A stretch of DNA of 26,263 bases, from assembly GCA_048882485.1 (NCBI GenBank), contig JBHLRP010000047.1:1-26263 (forward strand). The letters are read 5' to 3'. The notes below the pieces were generated by a model that was not told the DNA's origin, searched no databases, and saw only the letters and a program-made list of their open reading frames with translations. The position numbers were made by a program, and so were the translations under genes. Positions 10,791 to 25,799 of this stretch are shown here, piece by piece. The stretch's first letter is position 1. The number at the start of each line of letters is the position of its first letter. Source of the stretch: Candidatus Thorarchaeota archaeon. GTDB taxonomy: Archaea > Asgardarchaeota > Thorarchaeia > Thorarchaeales > Thorarchaeaceae.

Positions 10791-11339
10791 CTATCGGTCG
10801 AAGAAGACACTCTTTCCAGTTGCAGACAGCGGAATGCAAAGAATAATTGGACAGTCAGGCATCAATTTCATCTTGTGAGCTGCAGCACCAGCTCGATAGA
10901 AAATTCGGTTATCCACATTGTGAATCTGTGCCGTCTTGACTGCGCTCCCCAATGCAATACCGAGGTCAAGCGCCTTAATTGTGCAGATGGGTCCCACATA
11001 TGCTGCTCCTTTCTTCTGCTCAGCTTTTGAGAAATCAGAACAGGTTTCATGACCGCAAGCGCCACAGTTGACTCCCACGGACTTGAAGCCCTTCAGTCCC
11101 AGAAGAACAAGTGCCGATGATTGCTCCACGTTTATTGCATCTCGAATATAATGCTCTCCGTATTTTTCCGCCATTCCCCTCATCTCTTTAGCAATCTCGT
11201 CTTTCTCCTTTCCAGTAAGAATAGCGGTTTCAATGTCATCTTTGCCTGCGGCCTTGGGAGCAGTCCTGGCCGCGAGAAGCATAAGACGTGCTACATCAAT
11301 TACTGCCTTGCTCTCTTCATCCAAGCCTGAGATACGCAT
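10791..11339 (-). CDS. DUF2148 / COG4739 ferredoxin-domain protein
   Basis: AARTAPK..G.D, NCGACG.ETC, C...ALDLGIALGSA, NVDNRIFY, IPLSATGKSVFFDR. Confidence 0.88.
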   Translation of the reverse strand: MRISGLDEESKAVIDVARLMLLAARTAPKAAGKDDIETAILTGKEKDEIAKEMRGMAEKYGEHYIRDAINVEQSSALVLLGLKGFKSVGVNCGACGHETCSDFSKAEQKKGAAYVGPICTIKALDLGIALGSAVKTAQIHNVDNRIFYRAGAAAHKMKLMPDCPIILCIPLSATGKSVFFDR

Positions 11340-11400
11340 GATATCACCGGATGTCTGGTTTATATCGGCAACCTATAGCCTTTGCCGTGGACCAACCAAA

Positions 11401-12327
11401 CTAGGTTCTTATTCCCAGATTCACTTTGTTTATGGCATCGAGGCATGTAAAGATGAAGTCATTAGTCGGAGTGGAAATGTGAAATTCACGACCTAGACGC
11501 ACCACTGCTCCGTTTAGGATATCAATTTCAATTCTCCTCTTATTCATCAGGTCGCGATACATGGAGGGTCTTATGTCAGGATTAAGACCGAGTGAGAAAT
11601 TCATTAGTTTATCCAGAACATCATCAGACAATGAAACACCCTTTTCTCTGGCAATCTGAATTATCTCATTCATTGTGCTCTCATACAGATGCCTTGTTCC
11701 TTCAAAATCTAATATTGGCCCCACAGGTAATCCTGTCAAGCTACAGAGACCTCCAACTGCACAAATGAATGCGAATTTCTCCCACTCCTCAGAAACGATA
11801 TTCTCTGATAGGCTTGCATTTATTCCGGCTTTTTGGAATACTTCAAGAAGAAGCTTCCCTCGACCAGATTTCCTCCCATCTATCTCACCAAAGGCAAGCC
11901 TTTCTAGTCCTTCATGATGGATTATCCCAGGAGCTTCAATGTAAGCGCTCAAAGCGCATAGACCGCCCATGATATTTGCAACACCAAAAATGCGGCCAAG
12001 TGTTTCCTCCTTCTCTACACCATTCTGCAATGATATGACGATAGTGTCTTTTGTCACTAATGGTTTAATCCGATTAGCAGCTTCTATTGTGTCGTAGCCC
12101 TTGACACAGAAGAGGAGCAGATCAACTGGATCAATCTCTGAGGGATTATCAGTCGCTACAGGTTGAACTGTGAAATCACCCTTTGGACTCCGAATCTGTA
12201 ACCCGTTCTTCTTGATTGCCTGAAGATGCTCTCCTCTAGCAATGAAAACAACATCTTCACCAGATTTAGCCAGCAATCCTCCGAAATAGCCACCAACGCC
12301 GCCTGCACCCATAATAGCAATTCGCAA
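11401..12327 (-). CDS. panE: 2-dehydropantoate 2-reductase (ketopantoate reductase)
   Basis: IMGAGGVGGYFG, CVKGYD, SLQNG, WEKF, PSMYRD, IEIDILNG. Likely TTG start at 12327. Confidence 0.92.
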   Translation of the reverse strand: MRIAIMGAGGVGGYFGGLLAKSGEDVVFIARGEHLQAIKKNGLQIRSPKGDFTVQPVATDNPSEIDPVDLLLFCVKGYDTIEAANRIKPLVTKDTIVISLQNGVEKEETLGRIFGVANIMGGLCALSAYIEAPGIIHHEGLERLAFGEIDGRKSGRGKLLLEVFQKAGINASLSENIVSEEWEKFAFICAVGGLCSLTGLPVGPILDFEGTRHLYESTMNEIIQIAREKGVSLSDDVLDKLMNFSLGLNPDIRPSMYRDLMNKRRIEIDILNGAVVRLGREFHISTPTNDFIFTCLDAINKVNLGIRT

Positions 12328-12465
12328 TTGACAGATCAACCCCAGCAGTGAGTTGATGGATTAGAGGACCTCACTCTCTTAAGTATGCTTAACAGAAACA
12401 CATCGGTTTCTCGTCTAGTTGAATTGCAATGGAAAATCCTTGTTTCTCAACAAGGAGTATCTTTC

Positions 12466-12825
12466 CTACGGCATCACATGTCGCTCAGATGAAATGAATG
12501 CATCAATCATTCGGCAAGAAGGACAACCGTAGCTTTGGTACTCAGTACCTGCGAGAGCACCTACCATCATCTTCTCTAAAGCTAATACAAAGCCTGATTT
12601 CTCATTTAGAGTCAGATCGTAGCCAGAGCTCTTGGAAATCTTGCTTAATTCTGATACCTGCTTGAAGAAGGCGTCATTACTCATCGAGAACATGAAATGA
12701 AAAACATTAGCGTTCTTCACATGATCCCGAAGGTGAACGACTGCATAGCCATCAGTAGTATCATGCTTCTCGCGATACCGTATATCAATACTCAGGATAT
12801 CCTCAGGTCCAACCATAATTCCCAT
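12466..12825 (-). CDS. Hypothetical protein with C-terminal CxxC
   Basis: ATG at 12825 after AAGGTG; GCPSC near the C-terminus; fills the intergenic gap. Confidence 0.6.
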   Translation of the reverse strand: MGIMVGPEDILSIDIRYREKHDTTDGYAVVHLRDHVKNANVFHFMFSMSNDAFFKQVSELSKISKSSGYDLTLNEKSGFVLALEKMMVGALAGTEYQSYGCPSCRMIDAFISSERHVMP

Positions 12826-12987
12826 TTTAAGACACACCTTTTTTCCAAAGTTGGCATAGTGAATATTGCTTTAAAAGTTAACTATAGTGATATATTCTAG
12901 GCGAAACCGCATATCATGAGATTCACTATATCCCAAATTGCGTGTCTTTTCCTATTCAATGCGGAGCCAGAACGATCCACTGATTGG

Positions 12988-13998
12988 TTATTCAGGATTG
13001 AAAGTTAGCATGTCCTGACAGAACCTCTCAATGCCCTCCACACCTGCCACTTCAGAGGGGTATAGAGGCACATATGCGTTGACCATATCTCCGAGCTGCT
13101 CGCTAATCATATCCATATATCTAGTCTGCTGAAGATAGCTGTTCTTCATGTAATCAGTCGCATCTTCATCAGCGGCCTTTTTCGGAATGATTCTATTTAC
13201 AAACACTCCTCCTACCGGTATATCGAAAGCTTGCACCATCTTGATGAACCGTTGCACAACAGCAATTGGAAGCGCTAGCGGAATCGTCACAAATACGAAT
13301 GCAGTCCTCTCAACATCACTAAGTATCTCTTTTGCCCGCTGATTCTTCTGGTGTTGACGCAAGAGGTCGCCCAGCATGGGATCACTCTTCACCTCTTCCG
13401 CAATCTTATCCTTTCTGAAAGAGAGCTGCACTCGAAGGGATAGAGCCTCCTTTCTGCTTTCAATCATACGACTGAGCCAAAGGTCGTAGATTTTACTGAG
13501 ACCAAGTAGCCGAATAGCATTAGCCACTGCGGCGCAGTCAAAGACAACCACATCATATTGATCGCCTTGTTCAAGCATAATGTCGGTCATGGTGTCAAAT
13601 TGAGCAGATTCCTCAAAAGCTGGATTTGTGACGGCAATCTCAATAAATGCCTCAGGATTCACCGGAATATCAGCCCACTTGAGAAATGAAGTGATACGTT
13701 CTGTGAGCTGGTTTCGATATGTCGCCATCTTCTGTGTGATATCAACCTCAACACCCCACAAGTTCTCCGCTCCTTCAATCTTTCGGATGCCGCGTCCCCA
13801 GATGTCTTGACCATATAGAGTAGATAGTGAATGCACTGGATTCAAAGACGCAAGGAGCGTCTTTTTCCCCTTAGAAACAAAGTACTGGGCAATCGCCGCT
13901 GCACTAACAGTCTTTCCTACGCCACCTTTGCCACCGGTAAAGAAGAACTTGATATTCGGATGTTGCTTCACAAATTCCTCCCACTTTGATTCAGCCAT
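12988..13998 (-). CDS. ArsA/Get3 (TRC40) family ATPase, degenerate copy
   Basis: GGKGGVGKT deviant Walker A; SLNPVHSLS (Switch I, D->N); DCAAVANAIR (Switch II variant); VFVNR. Confidence 0.9.
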   Translation of the reverse strand: MAESKWEEFVKQHPNIKFFFTGGKGGVGKTVSAAAIAQYFVSKGKKTLLASLNPVHSLSTLYGQDIWGRGIRKIEGAENLWGVEVDITQKMATYRNQLTERITSFLKWADIPVNPEAFIEIAVTNPAFEESAQFDTMTDIMLEQGDQYDVVVFDCAAVANAIRLLGLSKIYDLWLSRMIESRKEALSLRVQLSFRKDKIAEEVKSDPMLGDLLRQHQKNQRAKEILSDVERTAFVFVTIPLALPIAVVQRFIKMVQAFDIPVGGVFVNRIIPKKAADEDATDYMKNSYLQQTRYMDMISEQLGDMVNAYVPLYPSEVAGVEGIERFCQDMLTFNPE

Positions 13999-14002
13999 TC
14001 TT

Positions 14003-15010
14003 CTAATCCTCCGTTATCTTTCCGTCCCAATTCATCATCACATCAGCGACTTTGCCAATCATCTCGAGTCCCTTTGGCTCTCTATCAAACATCGGGATTA
14101 CTGCGCACACACGCTTGCCTAGTTTCTCTTTGATCTCAACCATATACTTCTGCTGCATTTCGATGCGCTCACGAAGAAACTGACTCAGATCATCCCGCTT
14201 AAGCAGCTCTTTTGGATACACTTGATTGATAATGACGCCAGTTAGTGTGATGTCCATTTGCTCAAACATTTTCAACGCACGTTCGGTATCTAGAATTGAC
14301 ATCTTTTCAGGAGTGACAACCATATAGAACGCGGTTTTTTTGGCATCAGTAAGAATATCCTGGAAGAAGCTTAGCTTCTTCCGAATCTCTATTAATTCAG
14401 CAAGCATCTCGTCTTGCCCGGCGGCAGAAGTTCTTTGTTGCATCTGCCAAGCTGACTCGCCATATTCTTGCGCTTTCTTTCGCGTTTCTTCCATCTTCTC
14501 TACCCAGATATCTAGTATTCGAGCCATTGATACAATTCGAATGCCATGACCAAAAGGGGGCATATCAAAGACATGAAAACTATATTCATCAGAGGCGAGC
14601 AATCCAGCCATCGCATCATAAGTGGCGGATTCGTGCATAGCTGGCTCAGCCCCTGCCGCATTTATGTATTCATCAATCTCCTTGGGAATCTCATCAATGC
14701 CATACATGTCCTTGATTTGCTGTCGAATCTCTTCCTGAAAGGCGGCTATACGCTTGTCTGCGTCAATTTCCATTACGTGCAAATTCTCGGCTAGAGTAAC
14801 AGAACCCTTTCCAAAAACATCTTTCTCAAAAATGTCAGATAATGATGCTTGGGGGTCTGTACTAAAGCAAAGGATTCGTTGTCTCTTCTTTGCAAGCCAA
14901 GACGCCAATGCGGCACTGCATGTGGTTTTGCCCAAACCTCCCTTTCCAGCAAAGACCGCGATCTTTAGGTCCGGATTAGATTCGAAGAAGCTACTCATCT
15001 TTGTGGCCAA
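14003..15010 (-). CDS. ArsA/Get3 (TRC40) family ATPase, near-canonical copy
   Basis: AGKGGLGKTT, STDPQASLSD, MEIDA, DMPPFGHGIR, VVTPEKMSILDTER, IINQ; TTG start. Confidence 0.92.
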   Translation of the reverse strand: MATKMSSFFESNPDLKIAVFAGKGGLGKTTCSAALASWLAKKRQRILCFSTDPQASLSDIFEKDVFGKGSVTLAENLHVMEIDADKRIAAFQEEIRQQIKDMYGIDEIPKEIDEYINAAGAEPAMHESATYDAMAGLLASDEYSFHVFDMPPFGHGIRIVSMARILDIWVEKMEETRKKAQEYGESAWQMQQRTSAAGQDEMLAELIEIRKKLSFFQDILTDAKKTAFYMVVTPEKMSILDTERALKMFEQMDITLTGVIINQVYPKELLKRDDLSQFLRERIEMQQKYMVEIKEKLGKRVCAVIPMFDREPKGLEMIGKVADVMMNWDGKITED

Positions 15011-15057: not shown

Positions 15058-15345
15058 TCAAAAGAGAGCGTCCGTGAAGTCACGTTCTTTGAACAGGGTT
15101 CGCTTCCAGGTCTTAATATTCGGCACAGCATATGGCAGAAGCTTAAGTGAGTAGTATGGAGGAAGGATGGGAATGCCTAGCATGTCGCCTAGTGTAATGA
15201 GCATGAAAAGCTGCTCTAGGTACATTCGTGTCTTCAAGGCATACCTAGCCATACCTTGCATCGCCATACCATAGAAGAAGTCCTTCACGGCGCCTTTTGC
15301 GCCGCGACCCTGTTCAGATTCCTCGACATCCTTATCGGCGTTCAT
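15058..15345 (-). CDS. Small CstA/ArsA-associated protein (type B)
   Basis: GDMLGIPILPPYYSLKLLPY...W.R.LFKERD motif shared with the other three paralogs. Confidence 0.88.
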   Translation of the reverse strand: MNADKDVEESEQGRGAKGAVKDFFYGMAMQGMARYALKTRMYLEQLFMLITLGDMLGIPILPPYYSLKLLPYAVPNIKTWKRTLFKERDFTDALF

Positions 15346-15410: not shown

Positions 15411-15671
15411 TCAATCATCCATGCAAAGGATGACGTCCTGTTCTCTTAAAAGTCGTCTCTTCCAGGGAGCCATCTGTTCAAGCATGTGCACAAAGAGCAG
15501 CCTAGAATAGAAAGTCGATTGAAATGGATAGCCCAGGAGCTCGCCGAAGATTACAACCATCGTGGCATCATCGATGTGAACCTTGGCTTTAATTAGTGGA
15601 TTAGCAAGACTGGCCTTTTGCGATTGCCAGACTCCTTCCAAGAAGTCTCTAATAGCCCTGATGACTTGCAT
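15411..15671 (-). CDS. Small CstA/ArsA-associated protein (type A)
   Basis: FGELLGYPFQSTFYSR.LF...PWKRRLLREQD; ATG after AGGAGA. Confidence 0.85.
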   Translation of the reverse strand: MQVIRAIRDFLEGVWQSQKASLANPLIKAKVHIDDATMVVIFGELLGYPFQSTFYSRLLFVHMLEQMAPWKRRLLREQDVILCMDD

Positions 15672-15794: not shown

Positions 15795-16055
15795 CTACAT
15801 ATCAGTGAAGTCTTTTTCCTTTAGTATTCGCTTCCGCCATGGATCAATCTTGTTCAACCAGTAGATGAATAATTTTCTAGAATAGAAAGTTGACTGAAAT
15901 GGGTATCCCAAGAAATCGCCAAAGATTGTCACAATCATTGCATCATTGTGATATGTAGTAGCTTTGATGAGTGGGCGCGCAAGGTTCTCCTTTTGAGCTG
16001 CCCAGACTCCGTCCCAGAACTCTTTGAGCTTCCTGAAAGCACGCAAGTGATCCAC
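15795..16055 (-). CDS. Small CstA/ArsA-associated protein (type A)
   Basis: FGDFLGYPFQSTFYSRKLF...PWRKRILKEKD. The true start may be TTG at 16046, after GGTGG. Confidence 0.85.
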   Translation of the reverse strand: MDHLRAFRKLKEFWDGVWAAQKENLARPLIKATTYHNDAMIVTIFGDFLGYPFQSTFYSRKLFIYWLNKIDPWRKRILKEKDFTDM

Positions 16056-16149: not shown

Positions 16150-17931
16150 CTACTGTACTGGAGTCGATACTTCCACTGATACATCAGCTTGCTCAGGACC
16201 GCGTCTAAGTGCAGCCCAGGCGTCGGCAAAGACGAGCCATCCAAGGAAGAACAATACTATTGCGATGCCGAGGAAAGTCCAAGTCAATGCGATTGCTGGC
16301 AACGCATTGCCTCCTTGTGCTAAAACGTCTATTAGACTACCAGCTTGGGCATAATAGCCTGTGGCGCTCAGGAGGGCTTGGATGAACACCCAAGCTTCCC
16401 ATACGAGTGCCGCCTCACATGTGAAGATCATGAAGATGGCGGGAATCAGCGTATAGTATGTAGGTCTGTTAGCACGGACCAGATACACCGACGCAAGCAT
16501 GAGAGCAAGTCCTGCAAGCAGTTGGTTGCTGCCACCGAACAATAGCCATATGTGATACCAGGCGCCAGTAGCCGCGAAGATGAACGCAATTAGAACTCCG
16601 ATGAATGCTCCAATCCACTTATTTCGGAACAGAGGAGCAATCGCAGATTGCCCAGCGAGATCAGCTGCAGCCAAACGGAAGAACCGAGGCATGAGCTGCA
16701 ACACTGTAATTGCGTAGAGCTCTAGAACCATAGCAAAGAACGCAACTAAAACGATGCCGGATACAGCAGCACCACCAAACATACCTTGTGTGAGAATCGC
16801 TGCACCAGTCGGGAAGTTGGCGAACCATGCTCCTACCCTTTGTGCCTCTGGAATGACAACATATGCTGACATGGCACACATTGCAAGGACTCCTTCTAGG
16901 AACATAGAGCCACCAGCAACAGGAAGAGCATCGACCTCAGATGCGATTTGCTTTCCAGTTGCACTGCTTCCTACTAGGCTATGCCAGCCAGAAACAGCAC
17001 CACAGGCAATTGCCACGAAAAGAATTGGCCAAATAGGTCCATTTGCCTCTGTAAACAGAGTGATCACTGGATCTATCTGAACCGCGACTGGTTCTGACAC
17101 TGTCTGTGTAAGTGGACTAAGCAGAGCTCCGGCAATGATGAGTAGCACCGCTACAAAACATGGCCAGAAAGCAACGTAGTTTACTGGTTGCGCCCAGTCT
17201 GTTATTGCTAATGTAGCACCAAAGTACACAAGTACCAGGGACAGTATAATCCACCATTCTACCGGAGTATCGGCAACCCAAGCCAAAAGACCCTCTACAT
17301 AGAGCCAAATGCCCAAAACGATGCCGACAACCATGAACAGCATGCCTACAATAGTGGAGATTACAATGTTCATCTTTCTTCTATACATCATGATTCCAGC
17401 AAATGCTCCTCCAGCAATCACGAAAATTGTCGGAAGGATACTCTGTGGGAATGCTCTAAAGAACGCTCCACAGATATATGCGAAGACAGCCATCACTAGA
17501 ATCAGATAGAAGATGATGAAGCCCATCAAACCTTTGCGGGCTCGGGATCCTACCATCCGATAGGCAATCGGACCAAAGGATTCTCCCTCACTGCGCACTG
17601 TTATCATGACCGATGTGTAATCATGAATCCAACCAATGAAGAATGTGCCAAATACTATCCAAAGGAATGCTGGCAACCAACCAAATACTAATGCTATAAA
17701 CGGACCGCTAATGGGACCGAGAGCTGCAATCGATTTGAATTGGAAACCGAACAATACACTCTTTGAGGTGGGGAAGAACTCAACACCATCCATGTACATG
17801 TGCGCAGGTGTTTTTACTTTTGCATCAGGGCTCCAAACATTGCGATCTACGTATCTGGCGTATAGCCAATAGCCAAATATATAGATTACAAGTCCGACCC
17901 CGATAAATATTGCAGGTGAAAGTGTTTGCAT
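16150..17931 (-). CDS. cstA: Carbon starvation protein A (CstA) family transporter
   Basis: TPAH..DG..F.P, SIA..GPISGP, GWLPA.LWI..G..F.G..HDY, WPILFVAIACGAVSGWHSL, W.LFGGSNQLLAGLAL; strong GGAGGTGG RBS. Confidence 0.95.
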   Translation of the reverse strand: MQTLSPAIFIGVGLVIYIFGYWLYARYVDRNVWSPDAKVKTPAHMYMDGVEFFPTSKSVLFGFQFKSIAALGPISGPFIALVFGWLPAFLWIVFGTFFIGWIHDYTSVMITVRSEGESFGPIAYRMVGSRARKGLMGFIIFYLILVMAVFAYICGAFFRAFPQSILPTIFVIAGGAFAGIMMYRRKMNIVISTIVGMLFMVVGIVLGIWLYVEGLLAWVADTPVEWWIILSLVLVYFGATLAITDWAQPVNYVAFWPCFVAVLLIIAGALLSPLTQTVSEPVAVQIDPVITLFTEANGPIWPILFVAIACGAVSGWHSLVGSSATGKQIASEVDALPVAGGSMFLEGVLAMCAMSAYVVIPEAQRVGAWFANFPTGAAILTQGMFGGAAVSGIVLVAFFAMVLELYAITVLQLMPRFFRLAAADLAGQSAIAPLFRNKWIGAFIGVLIAFIFAATGAWYHIWLLFGGSNQLLAGLALMLASVYLVRANRPTYYTLIPAIFMIFTCEAALVWEAWVFIQALLSATGYYAQAGSLIDVLAQGGNALPAIALTWTFLGIAIVLFFLGWLVFADAWAALRRGPEQADVSVEVSTPVQ

Positions 17932-18064: not shown

Positions 18065-18685
18065 CTATAGAAGGTCATCTTCGTACGATTCTATGTCGTG
18101 TCCATGACACAAAAGAGAGTTCAATGAAGAAATCAGCACATTGGACTCTTCAATAATCAGCTCAGGAATAGGAGAATTCCAAATGACCTTTATGAGTCGA
18201 GAAGTTTCGTCACATGGGACATAGCCTATCAGTTGCGCACTAAGACGTGGGGACCCAAAGAATCCGAAGCGAGGACGCATGGCAGTCCAGAGAATATAGC
18301 TGCCAACATGATCTCCACTATGCAATTCACCATGTTCCACTACTTCTCGACCTTTGTTGAAGTGTTGTTCAAGAAGTGTTTCCGGGCTCGGTGCAATTGG
18401 CGTGTCCTTCTTCAATTCCACGACAATCTTGGCTCTGAAATCAAGGTCAGGACGCTTCTCTGTGCCATGTCTTCGTGAAATAAGGCATTCAATTTCTCCG
18501 GAACCAACCCATACACGGTCCTTGTAAAGGAATCTATTGGTGACCAGTGGGTCATTCATTTGATATCCGGTCACCCAAGAAGCAGGTAGAAAGAGAAAGG
18601 CAAAAATGGCACGACCAAAAAGCATGTTCCAGGCTTCGACACAAACCTCGCGCATGTCATCTACCTGCTCGTCTGTTTTCATCAC
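18065..18685 (-). CDS. Hypothetical soluble protein with H...C..T.R...CH pattern, upstream of cstA
   Basis: 206-aa ORF co-oriented with cstA; GDHVG, VPCDETSR, LLCHGH. Start uncertain. Confidence 0.7.
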   Translation of the reverse strand: MMKTDEQVDDMREVCVEAWNMLFGRAIFAFLFLPASWVTGYQMNDPLVTNRFLYKDRVWVGSGEIECLISRRHGTEKRPDLDFRAKIVVELKKDTPIAPSPETLLEQHFNKGREVVEHGELHSGDHVGSYILWTAMRPRFGFFGSPRLSAQLIGYVPCDETSRLIKVIWNSPIPELIIEESNVLISSLNSLLCHGHDIESYEDDLL

Positions 18686-18791
18686 AATTCAACTGCCAAT
18701 TTCTCAGAGGGGGGCTAATATATCGATTTTGATTCACAAAGTCTTAAAGGGAGGAACAGAAACAGACATTATTTATTCCCCCAAACGCTGA

Positions 18792-19487
18792 TTGGAGTAC
18801 GAACTCTTGCAGAACTTGGCTGAACAAGGCTATTTGGCCCTCTTTGGTGTGGCAATCTTCTTGATTGGGACGTGGATGATAGGACGTTGGAAAACATCAC
18901 AACTACGCAGTAGGATTTCACAGAATGTGGCAAATCGATTTGAAGCAACGACTTCCAAGGTGAGTGTCAGACTTCTTGGAAATACAGGAGCCAAATTCTC
19001 ATATCATCAGAAATCAAATAGTCCTCTGCCAAAACTCGAATCAACTATCCTATTGCTTGACAGGTCCAATATCTTCCATCTTGCATACTGCAAAATCCGT
19101 GGCCGAACCGACCAACTCCAAATACGGGCGAACCTAGGAAGACCTGCATCATTCAATCTCGAACTCGCAACTCAGAGAGAAAAGAAGAATCTGGAGGAGG
19201 TTTTGAAGCCCAAGATGGAAGGTGCTAGCGAGCTATTGATTGACAATCTGAGTGATCAGTTCTATGTTGTAGTATCCGATCTAGAAGCCGGTGAGCGTCT
19301 CTTTGAGAAGCAGGAGTTCCATGCGGATTTCAAAGCCATCGCGCCTTTCTTAACTCGCCTGTCCATTTCCAGAAAGGAACCGCATGTGTTCGCTTCTGTG
19401 GTTCTTGTTCCAGAATCCATGGCGCCCATTGAGAATTTCATCCTTTCCTTGGCCAAATCTATCAAGCGTAGAAAGAAGTCACAATAG
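18792..19487 (+). CDS. N-terminally anchored membrane protein, possible CCDC47/DUF1682-like
   Basis: One TM (GYLALFGVAIFLIGTWMI), then IGRWKTSQL...LLLDRSNIF...RGRTDQLQIRANL; basic C-terminus. Confidence is for the CDS; the family call is tentative. Confidence 0.75.
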   Translation: MEYELLQNLAEQGYLALFGVAIFLIGTWMIGRWKTSQLRSRISQNVANRFEATTSKVSVRLLGNTGAKFSYHQKSNSPLPKLESTILLLDRSNIFHLAYCKIRGRTDQLQIRANLGRPASFNLELATQREKKNLEEVLKPKMEGASELLIDNLSDQFYVVVSDLEAGERLFEKQEFHADFKAIAPFLTRLSISRKEPHVFASVVLVPESMAPIENFILSLAKSIKRRKKSQ

Positions 19488-23741: not shown

Positions 23742-25799
23742 CTAGAAACCGACTAGATCTATGAACTCATCTTCGCTGAGAATTTCAATGCCAAGCTTCT
23801 TTGCCTTCTCAAGCTTTGAGCCTGCGCCAGGACCTGCTACAACGTAGATCGTATTCTTGGACACGCTTGAGGAAGTCTTCGCACCAAGACTCTCGACTAA
23901 TTCCTTTGCTTTCCTTCTATCCATTTTCTCCAAAGCCCCAGTAAATACGAACGTACTACCAGCTAGAGTCTGAGCAGCTTCTTCAAGATCTGTCTTCTTT
24001 CCTAAGCCCGCCTCAATCAAGTCCTTAACCATACTTCTCGTATCTTCATATTCAAAGTACTCTACAATACTTCTGGCAATTTCAGGCCCAATTGTATCAA
24101 GTCTTAGCAGGTCGCTTTCAGTTGCAGAAATCAGATCCCTAACAGACTCGAAGCTGTAGGCAAGAATCTTCGCTGTCTGTTCTCCAACATTTGGTATCCC
24201 AAGTGCAAAGATGAATCGGTTTAGAGGAAGGCTCTTTGAGGCTTCAATCTGTTCAAGAATCTTGAGGGCAAGACGCTCTCCAAATCGCTCCAAGCCCAAC
24301 AGGTCATCAATATTCAGTGTATAGAGAGAATGAAGACTTGTCACAATCCCAGCATCAACGAGCTGGTCTACACGTTTCGACCCAAGTCCCTCTATATCCA
24401 TGCCACTGCGAGATGCAAAATGCTTGATGCTTCTTCGTAGCTGAGCAGGACAATTGAAGTTTGGACACTGAGCCAACTTCTTATCATTGCTCATATGGAT
24501 TGGAGAGTTGCAGACAGGGCATATCAATGGCATGTCAAACACTCTTTCAGAACCATCTCTTGAGTCAAGAACTGGACGCTCAACCTGTGGTATAACATCA
24601 CCAGCTCGAACAACAATGACAGTATCGCCAATTCGGATGTCTTTACGTTCAATCTCACTCTGATTATGGAGTGATGCTCTGCTGACTGTGACTCCACCTA
24701 TGTTAACGGGATCAAGTTCAGCTACTGGTGTGAGTCGGCCAGTTCTTCCTACCTGTACGGTAATATCGAGCAGCTTGGTTGTTGCCGCCCTCGGTTTGAA
24801 TTTGTAGGCAATAGCCCATCGAGGGTCTCTAGCTCTGAAACCCATTTTTTCTTGATTCGACTTGGAGTTGACTTTGAAGACTACTCCATCTATTTCAAAG
24901 GCCAGATCATCTCTTTTGTCTTCGAGTTCACGATGATACTCTAGAAGCTCATCAAAACCTCGGCAGAGTCGAGAGAGTTCGAGCTGAGTTGGGAGACCCC
25001 ATTTCGGGAGAGATTCCAACACCTGCCATTGCGTATCAAAAGCTCGTCCTTCAGATTCCATCACGTCGTAGATGTATATCCGGAGTGGTCTGCTGGCTGT
25101 GATCTTGGGATCCAGTTGCCTTATAGACCCAGCTGCCGCGTTGCGCGGATTGGCGAAGGTTGGCTCGTCAGAAGCCTCGCGTTGGACATTCAATTTCTCA
25201 AAATCCTCAAGCCCCATATACACCTCACCACGAACTATTAGGCGAGATGGAATACCATCATCATCGTCATCCAGCAGGACAAGGGGTAGTTCCCGAATTG
25301 TCTTCACGTTCGCAGTAACATTCTCGCCGGTCTGACTATCGCCCCTGGTAGATGCAACTATCAATGACCCATTCTCATAGATTAGTTCAACCGCAAGACC
25401 GTCAAATTTGGGCTCCGCAACATACTCAATGATCCTGGCGCCCAATTCACCTTGGCATCTAGCATCGAATTTTCGAACCACAGATTCTTCATAGACTGTC
25501 TGAAGGCTAAGCATAGGAATTGCGTGTTCGATTGTCCCCAATTCTGAAAGCGGCTCTCCGCCGACCTTTTGCGTTGGCGAGTCAAAACTACTGAGCTCCG
25601 GGAATCTCTCCTCAAGAGCTATCAAATTCAATAACAGTGAATCATACTCTGAGTCATCAATCACTGGTGAATCAAGAATATAGTATCTATAATTGTGATA
25701 CCTGATTGCTTTTGATAATCTACTGATAGCATGTTTGGCCTTTTTCTTGGAGGTGATTTTGTCCACATCAATGTCAGGTTTAAGATCATCTTCTGTCAT
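23742..25799 (-). CDS. ligA: NAD-dependent DNA ligase
   Basis: YHNYRYY..D.P.I.D.EYD, EPKFDG, STRGD..GENVT, RGEVYM, FANPRNAAAGS.RQLD, IDGVVFK, PRWAIAYKF, Cys4 zinc finger, HhH, BRCT. Confidence 0.98.
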   Translation of the reverse strand: MTEDDLKPDIDVDKITSKKKAKHAISRLSKAIRYHNYRYYILDSPVIDDSEYDSLLLNLIALEERFPELSSFDSPTQKVGGEPLSELGTIEHAIPMLSLQTVYEESVVRKFDARCQGELGARIIEYVAEPKFDGLAVELIYENGSLIVASTRGDSQTGENVTANVKTIRELPLVLLDDDDDGIPSRLIVRGEVYMGLEDFEKLNVQREASDEPTFANPRNAAAGSIRQLDPKITASRPLRIYIYDVMESEGRAFDTQWQVLESLPKWGLPTQLELSRLCRGFDELLEYHRELEDKRDDLAFEIDGVVFKVNSKSNQEKMGFRARDPRWAIAYKFKPRAATTKLLDITVQVGRTGRLTPVAELDPVNIGGVTVSRASLHNQSEIERKDIRIGDTVIVVRAGDVIPQVERPVLDSRDGSERVFDMPLICPVCNSPIHMSNDKKLAQCPNFNCPAQLRRSIKHFASRSGMDIEGLGSKRVDQLVDAGIVTSLHSLYTLNIDDLLGLERFGERLALKILEQIEASKSLPLNRFIFALGIPNVGEQTAKILAYSFESVRDLISATESDLLRLDTIGPEIARSIVEYFEYEDTRSMVKDLIEAGLGKKTDLEEAAQTLAGSTFVFTGALEKMDRRKAKELVESLGAKTSSSVSKNTIYVVAGPGAGSKLEKAKKLGIEILSEDEFIDLVGF

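Follow-up and report, generated by a model that had tools for sequence, protein, structure and literature searches.

A minimal CCDC47 (DUF1682) superfamily member beside the cstA and arsA genes of a Thorarchaeial genome

The stretch of DNA analysed here (the window) comprises 26,263 nucleotides of a Candidatus Thorarchaeota archaeon (contig JBHLRP010000047.1 of assembly GCA_048882485.1, positions 1 to 26,263). At 18792..19487, on the plus strand, it encodes a 231-amino acid (aa) protein, here called mini-CCDC47, that represents the CCDC47 (DUF1682) superfamily in minimal form: beyond a short N-terminus on the outside it consists of a single membrane helix and a cytoplasmic alpha/beta domain. 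Beside the gene lies a module in which a CstA permease is joined by between one and three small CstX/DUF7990 proteins and by two ArsA/Get3-like ATPases, with a PsbP-like protein added in archaea. There is little doubt that mini-CCDC47 is a genuine distant homologue of eukaryotic CCDC47 and a member of this CstA/ArsA module.

Mini-CCDC47 and its kinship with CCDC47

The AlphaFold2 model of mini-CCDC47, made with an alignment of 21 homologues (predicted local distance difference test score, pLDDT, 86.7; predicted template modelling score 0.80), contains both the single membrane helix and the cytoplasmic alpha/beta domain of CCDC47. A Foldseek search of the PDB returns CCDC47 in all of the first three places (7tm3_4, E 3.4e-9; 9i78_4, E 1e-7; 6w6l_7, E 4.3e-6), with mycobacterial TtfA next (E 7e-5); the PDB molecule names confirm CCDC47 for the matched chains. 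The wide structural search by VIA-align, which is independent of Foldseek, gives CCDC47 chain 7tut_4 a Z of 16.2, with 219 of the 231 residues aligned to chain residues 135-401 at a root-mean-square deviation (rmsd) of 3.3 Å, followed by the fungal CCDC47 chain 9i78_4 (Z 14.4) and TtfA (6t84, Z 13.3), after which the scores drop to 6.8. The CCDC47 chains accordingly stand far above all unrelated matches, at a sequence identity of about 13% in the structural comparisons.

Sequence profiles reach CCDC47 both directly and transitively. The direct match comes from a 34-row family profile (181 profile positions) of which the window protein is the first row: against 177,635 PDB sequences it ranks mammalian CCDC47 at the top (7tm3_4/7tut_4, E 0.0082; 6w6l_7, E 0.021). 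HMMER pairs CCDC47 residues 139-334, including IESVHFS, with profile positions 13-193, whose consensus holds the four motifs named in the first-pass annotation of this DNA, and the G31 and R91 that are invariant in the family alignments, as well as the nearly invariant D107, are matched in CCDC47. Among the profiles tried against PDB sequences only this broad one reached CCDC47; the narrower profiles (A1, A3, A4 and A5) and the single sequences P0074 and P0033 yielded no significant match to it. The first-pass annotation had likened the protein to CCDC47 by eye, from the order and similarity of motifs, and the likeness is borne out by the AlphaFold model, by Foldseek and the VIA-align score, by the top rank of the family profile and by the reproduced motif pairs.

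The transitive route runs through PF07946, the Pfam model of CCDC47/DUF1682 (model length 326; gathering score 27.7 bits). The window protein matches no Pfam or NCBIfam model, PF07946 giving nothing at E <= 1, and the same model run over the whole genome finds nothing at the mini-CCDC47 gene. An exhaustive phmmer search adds 23 more remote relatives, 206-237 aa long, whose sources are Bathyarchaeia, Wolframiiraptor, Jordarchaeaceae and Chloroflexota, and PF07946 is matched by 13 of 27 family sequences; one relative, P0033, lies above the cut-off (33.5 bits, E 3e-8), two others fall just below it, and the family relatives cover only model positions 5-227 of 326. Asgard proteins that match PF07946 score 29-36.8 bits, and hhalign relates the Thorarchaeial family to the Heimdall DUF1682 proteins with a probability of 93.6% (E 2e-7). 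The expectation that the DUF1682/CCDC47 profile would recognize this protein fails for the window sequence itself and holds for some of its relatives.

The alternative to homology is that a common alpha/beta fold joined to a membrane anchor has come to resemble CCDC47 by convergence, or through modelling bias. The low identity, the failure of the window protein to match PF07946, the fact that its structure is a prediction, and the existence of similar small alpha/beta sandwiches (type III secretion chaperones) at Z 5-7 speak for such a reading. The gap between Z 16.2, 14.4 and 13.3 and the next value of 6.8, with an alignment that takes in the membrane helix, speaks against it, as do relatives that exceed the curated Pfam cut-off and the collinear motif alignment in which the invariant G and R and the near-invariant D of the family find their counterparts. 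Convergence or bias is considered extremely unlikely.

The open reading frame is stop-free and contains every string that the first-pass annotation quoted (WMIGRWKTSQL, TILLLDRSNIFHLAYCKIRGRTDQLQIRANL, NLSDQFYVV and LTRLSIS). It is a real and conserved gene, since its 25 close homologues (46-92% identity, all from Asgard metagenome-assembled genomes and all annotated 'hypothetical') have 51 invariant columns in common; in its own genome, which is 90.5% complete, it is present as a single copy. These homologues start with MQ, a position that falls on the TTG at 18807, so the actual product may be of 226 aa rather than the 231 aa that are counted from the TTG at 18792. Hydrophobic residues run for 19 positions (about residues 13-31) and give way to the basic cluster RWKTSQLRSR, which indicates a single-pass topology that leaves the short N-terminus outside and most of the chain in the cytoplasm (N-out, C-in). 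The transmembrane helix (about residues 12-32; 18825..18887, plus strand) ends in a conserved juxtamembrane G31-R32 motif and continues in the model as one long helix (2-47) to about residue 47; G31 is invariant among 34 diverse relatives and aligns with the G of IIGKNKN in CCDC47. The cytoplasmic alpha/beta domain (about residues 48-223; 18933..19460, plus strand), which has the CCDC47/TtfA-type fold in the model, carries the motifs LLDR(S/E)N, R-x-D-x-x-x-(K/R)-A-N and R-x-S-I-x-x-x-E-P-H, and the C-terminus lies only about 8 residues past the last helix of this globular domain.

One Bathyarchaeial member of the family, P0029 (L007:5129-5794), carries the NCBI name DUF3137 protein. It scores 26.8 bits with PF07946 and 31.7 bits, above the cut-off, with DUF3137 (PF11335), a double match which suggests that DUF3137 may be a bacterial arm of the CCDC47 superfamily; a search for DUF3137 across the window genome found nothing.

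Linkage to cstA and arsA, and the locus in the window

The presence of the window's clade tracks cstA across genomes. In a survey of 301 Asgard genomes the family was found in 101 and cstA in 14, and in 12 of these 14 the mini-CCDC47 gene lies on the same contig as cstA and less than 2 kilobases (kb) from it; the remaining two are 88% and 73% complete. The linked set is cstA, DUF7990, arsA1 and arsA2, with the mini-CCDC47 gene within it or beside it, and such loci occur in Thorarchaeia, Bathyarchaeia, Wolframiiraptor/Nitrososphaeria, other Thermoproteota, a bacterium of the Chloroflexota and one more genome, which has a 1.6-Mb contig. A narrower search for related loci gave six, all in Thermoproteota. 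In Thorarchaeia the synteny upstream of mini-CCDC47 holds down to 46% identity while the downstream genes vary; at 20-30% identity the linkage persists with shuffled gene order and orientation. In Bathyarchaeia the mini-CCDC47 gene directly follows cstA, and at one locus (L050) it overlaps the end of arsA2. The association with cstA/arsA loci, on which the earlier proposal of a joint module leaned, is consistent across phyla.

Within the window's own family, any copy of the gene is found in only 5 of 76 genomes, and in three genomes a module-linked copy coexists with a free-standing one. A quick maximum-likelihood tree of 55 sequences requires 3 changes of the label 'CstA-linked', the mean for shuffled labels being 16 (0 of 500 shuffles as low); it joins the window clade to Thermoproteota and Chloroflexota proteins with moderate support (Shimodaira-Hasegawa-like approximate likelihood ratio test, 88-89). 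The tree has no root and no eukaryotic sequences, and several of its branches are long. The module is conserved across domains and the clade is probably moving horizontally.

The neighbours in the window are as the first-pass annotation described them: Pfam and NCBIfam scans identify cstA, three small helical open reading frames and two ArsA-type ATPases, all on the minus strand. The CstA-family multipass permease (16150..17931, 593 aa) matches PF02554 at E 9.5e-100. It is followed by three CstX/DUF7990 proteins, copy a (15795..16055, 86 aa), copy b (15411..15671, 86 aa) and copy c (15058..15345, 95 aa), and then by the ArsA/Get3-like ATPase 1 (14003..15010, 335 aa; PF02374, E 1.8e-69) and ATPase 2 (12988..13998, 336 aa; PF02374, E 7.7e-57), the latter 4 nucleotides after the former. 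The two ATPases have the P-loop GKGG(L/V)GKT in common and differ in their nucleotide-switch motifs (FSTDPQASLSD in ATPase 1, SLNPVHSLST in ATPase 2). All three CstX/DUF7990 reading frames give a weak, sub-threshold NCBIfam match to 'cory-CC-star protein' (NF041419, E 2e-7 to 8e-3), which connects these small Asgard proteins with a family that takes its name from Corynebacterium. The cluster extends through 10791..12837 on the same strand with a 123-aa protein of no known identity, an ApbA/PanE-type reductase and DUF2148, an extension conserved in Thorarchaeia; DUF2148 and the 123-aa protein also lie beside the module in another Asgard family, and ApbA does so in the Chloroflexota bacterium. 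Farther off, at 23742-25799 on the minus strand, this Asgard genome encodes an NAD-dependent (bacterial-type) DNA ligase, LigA, that is complete in all its domains.

Between cstA and mini-CCDC47 lies the gene for a 206-aa soluble protein of no known family (unk206; 18065..18685, minus strand). The 106-base-pair region between the divergent mini-CCDC47 gene and unk206-cstA operon (18686..18791) would be a shared promoter region; an A/T-rich TTATTTATT box stands about 28 nucleotides upstream of the TTG at 18807, and the divergent arrangement is kept in Thorarchaeia among homologues at 46-92% identity. The model of the 206-aa protein (pLDDT 84.4) resolves its hydrophobic start into beta strands, so that it is no membrane protein, and has a PsbP/Mog1-type fold (2xb3_A, Z 11.1, 143 residues aligned). 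H126, C158, C193 and H194 are invariant across its Asgard and Thermoproteota homologues and may form a metal site. Its gene adjoins that of mini-CCDC47 in the archaeal loci where it is detected; it is not detected in locus L048. The idea that it is a paralogue of mini-CCDC47 was rejected: the BLAST match (E 0.045) covers the hydrophobic start only, and the fold is a different, all-soluble, PsbP-like one. A complex prediction for the pair, made without control runs, scored 0.00, a value that speaks neither for nor against their binding.

Free-standing homologues and eukaryotic ancestry

Outside the CstA-linked clade, free-standing homologues are present in 24 of 28 genomes of the Heimdall type and in four further Asgard families, f22 (21/21), f27 (10/11), f20 (7/7) and f19 (6/6). 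No cstA was found in five genomes with free-standing homologues, two of which are single contigs, nor in any of the 28 Heimdall-type genomes. The Heimdall homologues are of about 300 aa, match PF07946 over positions 8-320 of 326 and end in a Lys/Glu/Arg-rich tail; some carry the NCBI label 'DUF1682 domain-containing protein'. They and the other free-standing Asgard forms belong with mini-CCDC47 in one family by profile (hhalign, 93.6%; A3 profile, E 1e-17 to 1e-60) and have the same topology. The Heimdall proteins differ from mini-CCDC47 in their direct PF07946 match, their charged tail, the lack of cstA in their genomes and their frequent position beside a Ras-family GTPase gene.

This last observation extends to three clades in which a small Ras/Arf/Roc-family GTPase (187-190 aa; PF00071, E 8e-32) adjoins the free-standing homologue: L029:8286-8858 (plus strand) beside L029:8956-9855 is one example, and loci L028, L031-L034, L038, L055 and L057 are others. 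The Heimdall GTPase gene lies on the same strand, about 100 nucleotides upstream; in f22 there are two tandem copies in convergent orientation. Asgards carry many small GTPases, and the adjacency may be due to chance. A gene of the YjeF type (NAD(P)HX repair) is convergent with free-standing homologues in four clades.

The near-universality of free-standing homologues in several cstA-less Asgard families (24/28 and 21/21, as above) raises the possibility that mini-CCDC47 is a general archaeal accessory factor of the translocon, an 'archaeal PAT', that has come to lie next to the cstA cluster by chance in this lineage; the Lys/Glu-rich C-terminal tail and the nearly full-length PF07946 coverage of the Heimdall forms agree with that possibility. 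A general translocon role is unlikely for the window's own clade because its presence so tightly tracks cstA. The two genes are adjacent in 12 of 14 cstA genomes, the linkage survives 20-30% identity, rearrangements and domain boundaries, a copy of any kind is found in only 5 of the 76 genomes of the window's family, and the window protein lacks the C-terminal tail. Chance adjacency of a general factor is judged very unlikely.

The same evidence bears on descent. The first-pass annotation saw in this locus a possible source of two eukaryotic endoplasmic reticulum (ER) factors, a suggestion that finds no support here because the gene is patchy and is grouped with a cross-domain, probably horizontally moving clade. 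It groups with Thermoproteota and Chloroflexota proteins rather than with Heimdall, and as to the second factor, a third ArsA-family gene, on contig 74, outscores the module ATPases on the ArsA/Get3 model (286 versus 235 and 193 bits). The window protein as direct forerunner of the eukaryotic machine is not supported; it is the product of an accessory-module gene, patchily distributed, and not a eukaryotic ancestor. The Heimdall-type forms are better candidates for the ancestor of eukaryotic CCDC47. A search with a Heimdall protein aimed at eukaryotic CCDC47 sequences returned only Asgard proteins.

Function, and comparison with known systems

Clusters of the form cstA-cstX-(cstY)-arsA have been described from genome context, CstY being a protein of about 210 aa with a single transmembrane segment, from five archaea (PMC2963123); the paper counts Thermococcus kodakarensis among the carriers of cstA-cstX-cstY-arsA. 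Castillo & Saier (2010; Int J Microbiol 2010:187373; PMC2963123) concluded, entirely in silico, that these clusters co-evolve and proposed that the ArsA homologues energise CstA. The gene set is the same as that found here: a CstA permease, a CstX of about 90 aa and single-domain ArsA homologues of about 330 aa, often paired. In size and topology mini-CCDC47 also fits the description of CstY (single-pass, about 210 aa, archaeal), and it is probably the 'CstY' of that paper. The paper differs in giving CstY no fold or family, and neither the tie to CCDC47 nor the Chloroflexota members are in it.

In the favoured reading, considered somewhat more likely than not, mini-CCDC47 serves the CstA-ArsA module as a stable accessory subunit in the membrane. 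The membrane helix would pack against CstA, and the cytoplasmic domain would provide a membrane-proximal docking platform for the small proteins and the two ArsA ATPases. Its nearest tested counterpart is TtfA, whose N-terminal 205 residues bind the MmpL3 transporter and enable it.

The main rival is a dedicated chaperone of CstA. In a biogenesis module of this kind mini-CCDC47 would act transiently and PAT-like, shielding CstA helices during insertion and assembly, with the Get3-like ATPase pair and the small helical proteins delivering or releasing segments, and would be missing from the mature transporter. Mini-CCDC47 is, after all, a homologue of an intramembrane chaperone subunit (PMC9630114). 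Its partner ATPases are of the ArsA/Get3 family, the linkage is tight and to one large multipass permease, and the PsbP-like neighbour falls in the broad fold class of the Eag/SciW chaperones that hold transmembrane segments (weakly, at E about 6e-3 to 3e-2). Against this stands the division of labour within the PAT complex, in which the client-binding subunit is Asterix, not CCDC47; a search of the window genome (90.5% complete) with the Asterix model (PF03669) detects no homologue, the best E being 0.63, although the model might overlook a three-helix protein that is small and divergent. Mini-CCDC47 also lacks the C-terminal helices that contact the ribosome and Sec61. Of 14 well-known control genomes, 7 have CstA, E. 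coli and B. subtilis among them, and none is matched by PF07946 at E <= 0.001, so that CstA apparently needs no such factor generally, a comparison limited by the insensitivity of the PF07946 model to mini-CCDC47's clade. Lastly, TtfA, the only prokaryotic structural relative to have been tested, works together with its transporter as a partner. An accessory subunit of an ArsA-coupled CstA transporter accounts for the gene context at least as well as a biogenesis machine does, and the chaperone reading is regarded as possible but unlikely.

Several points weigh against the accessory-subunit reading and its premises. The window protein misses PF07946, and its homology to CCDC47 is built from transitive and profile evidence and a predicted structure; taken by itself, the E-value of the direct profile match to CCDC47 (0.008) is marginal, and it is backed by the transitive Pfam matches and the hhalign probability of 93.6%. 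The equation with CstY goes by the published description. Kinship with a translocon chaperone, together with ATPases of the Get3 type, fits a role in biogenesis equally well. A sister clade (Jordarchaeaceae-like) is free-standing, and genome G058, in which no cstA was detected, retains mini-CCDC47 together with the PsbP-like protein; it follows that the protein can function in the absence of CstA. In G058, which is 100% complete with 11% contamination, the pair (L042, G058:C42, 8279-9603) has no cstA, arsA or DUF7990 within about 8 kb. Finally, homology, fold and gene linkage are matters of observation; the physical contacts of mini-CCDC47 with its module partners, and its role, are what we infer from them.

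A wider scenario would take CCDC47, TtfA and the CstA-linked 'CstY' proteins as one ancient superfamily of single-pass partners in attendance on multipass membrane proteins. Eukaryotic CCDC47 would have arisen from its free-standing, Heimdall-type branch, in which the charged C-terminal tail is already present, and the CstA-linked branch and the Get3-like pair would constitute an ATP-driven device that assembles or quality-controls a multipass permease. This combination is speculative and seems quite improbable as a whole; if it were true, the CstA-linked branch would be a working prokaryotic analogue of the ER membrane-protein biogenesis machinery.

The CCDC47 core, a membrane helix with its cytoplasmic domain, exists in archaea and bacteria, and does so in two settings: in a mobile CstA/ArsA module, and as a free-standing protein of Heimdall and other Asgards, whose charged tail recalls that of CCDC47. 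The origin of a PAT complex subunit gains a concrete and testable starting point, the CstA-ArsA module of 2010 gains a structurally defined extra subunit, and CCDC47 and that module are both linked to TtfA, an essential partner of a tuberculosis drug target. The CCDC47 kinship of the relatives is partly visible in databases and undiscussed in the literature searched, in which CCDC47 is treated as a eukaryotic ER factor with no mention jointly with Asgard archaea or TtfA, and 'DUF1682' appears only in non-prokaryotic contexts.

Eukaryotic CCDC47 (PF07946/DUF1682; PDB 7TM3/7TUT chain 4, 6W6L chain 7 and 9I78 chain 4) forms, with Asterix, the PAT complex of the multipass translocon (PMC9630114). 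Mini-CCDC47 has in common with it a single membrane helix, a C-terminal domain on the cytoplasmic side, the alpha/beta fold of that domain (Z 16.2 and 14.4) and a collinear set of motifs: G-x-x-x-N after the helix, L-x-R-x-(D/N), D-x-x-x-(K/R) and the S that ends the last motif. It differs at both ends. The signal peptide and the acidic lumenal domain are lacking, the transmembrane segment starting at about residue 12 and the alignment at CCDC47 residue 135, and so are the C-terminal coiled-coil/latch helices that touch the ribosome and Sec61; mini-CCDC47 is about half the size (231 versus 483 aa), is encoded in a transporter/ATPase module and falls below the Pfam threshold.

TtfA (Rv0383c/MSMEG_0736; 6T84) likewise begins with a membrane helix at the N-terminus, after which comes a globular domain, about 180 aa in length and of the same fold (6t84_A, Z 13.3, 156 residues aligned, rmsd 3.6 Å), and is likewise the accessory partner of a multipass transporter, in its case MmpL3 (PMC6593404). 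Its first 205 aa are required for MmpL3 binding and mycolate transport (PMC6593404). It differs in being only 6% identical in the structural alignment and absent from the results of the PDB sequence search, in being restricted to Actinobacteria, and in its partners: the transporter is of the RND type rather than CstA, with no ArsA or CstX. The Pfam scan finds no MmpL/RND gene within the window cluster.

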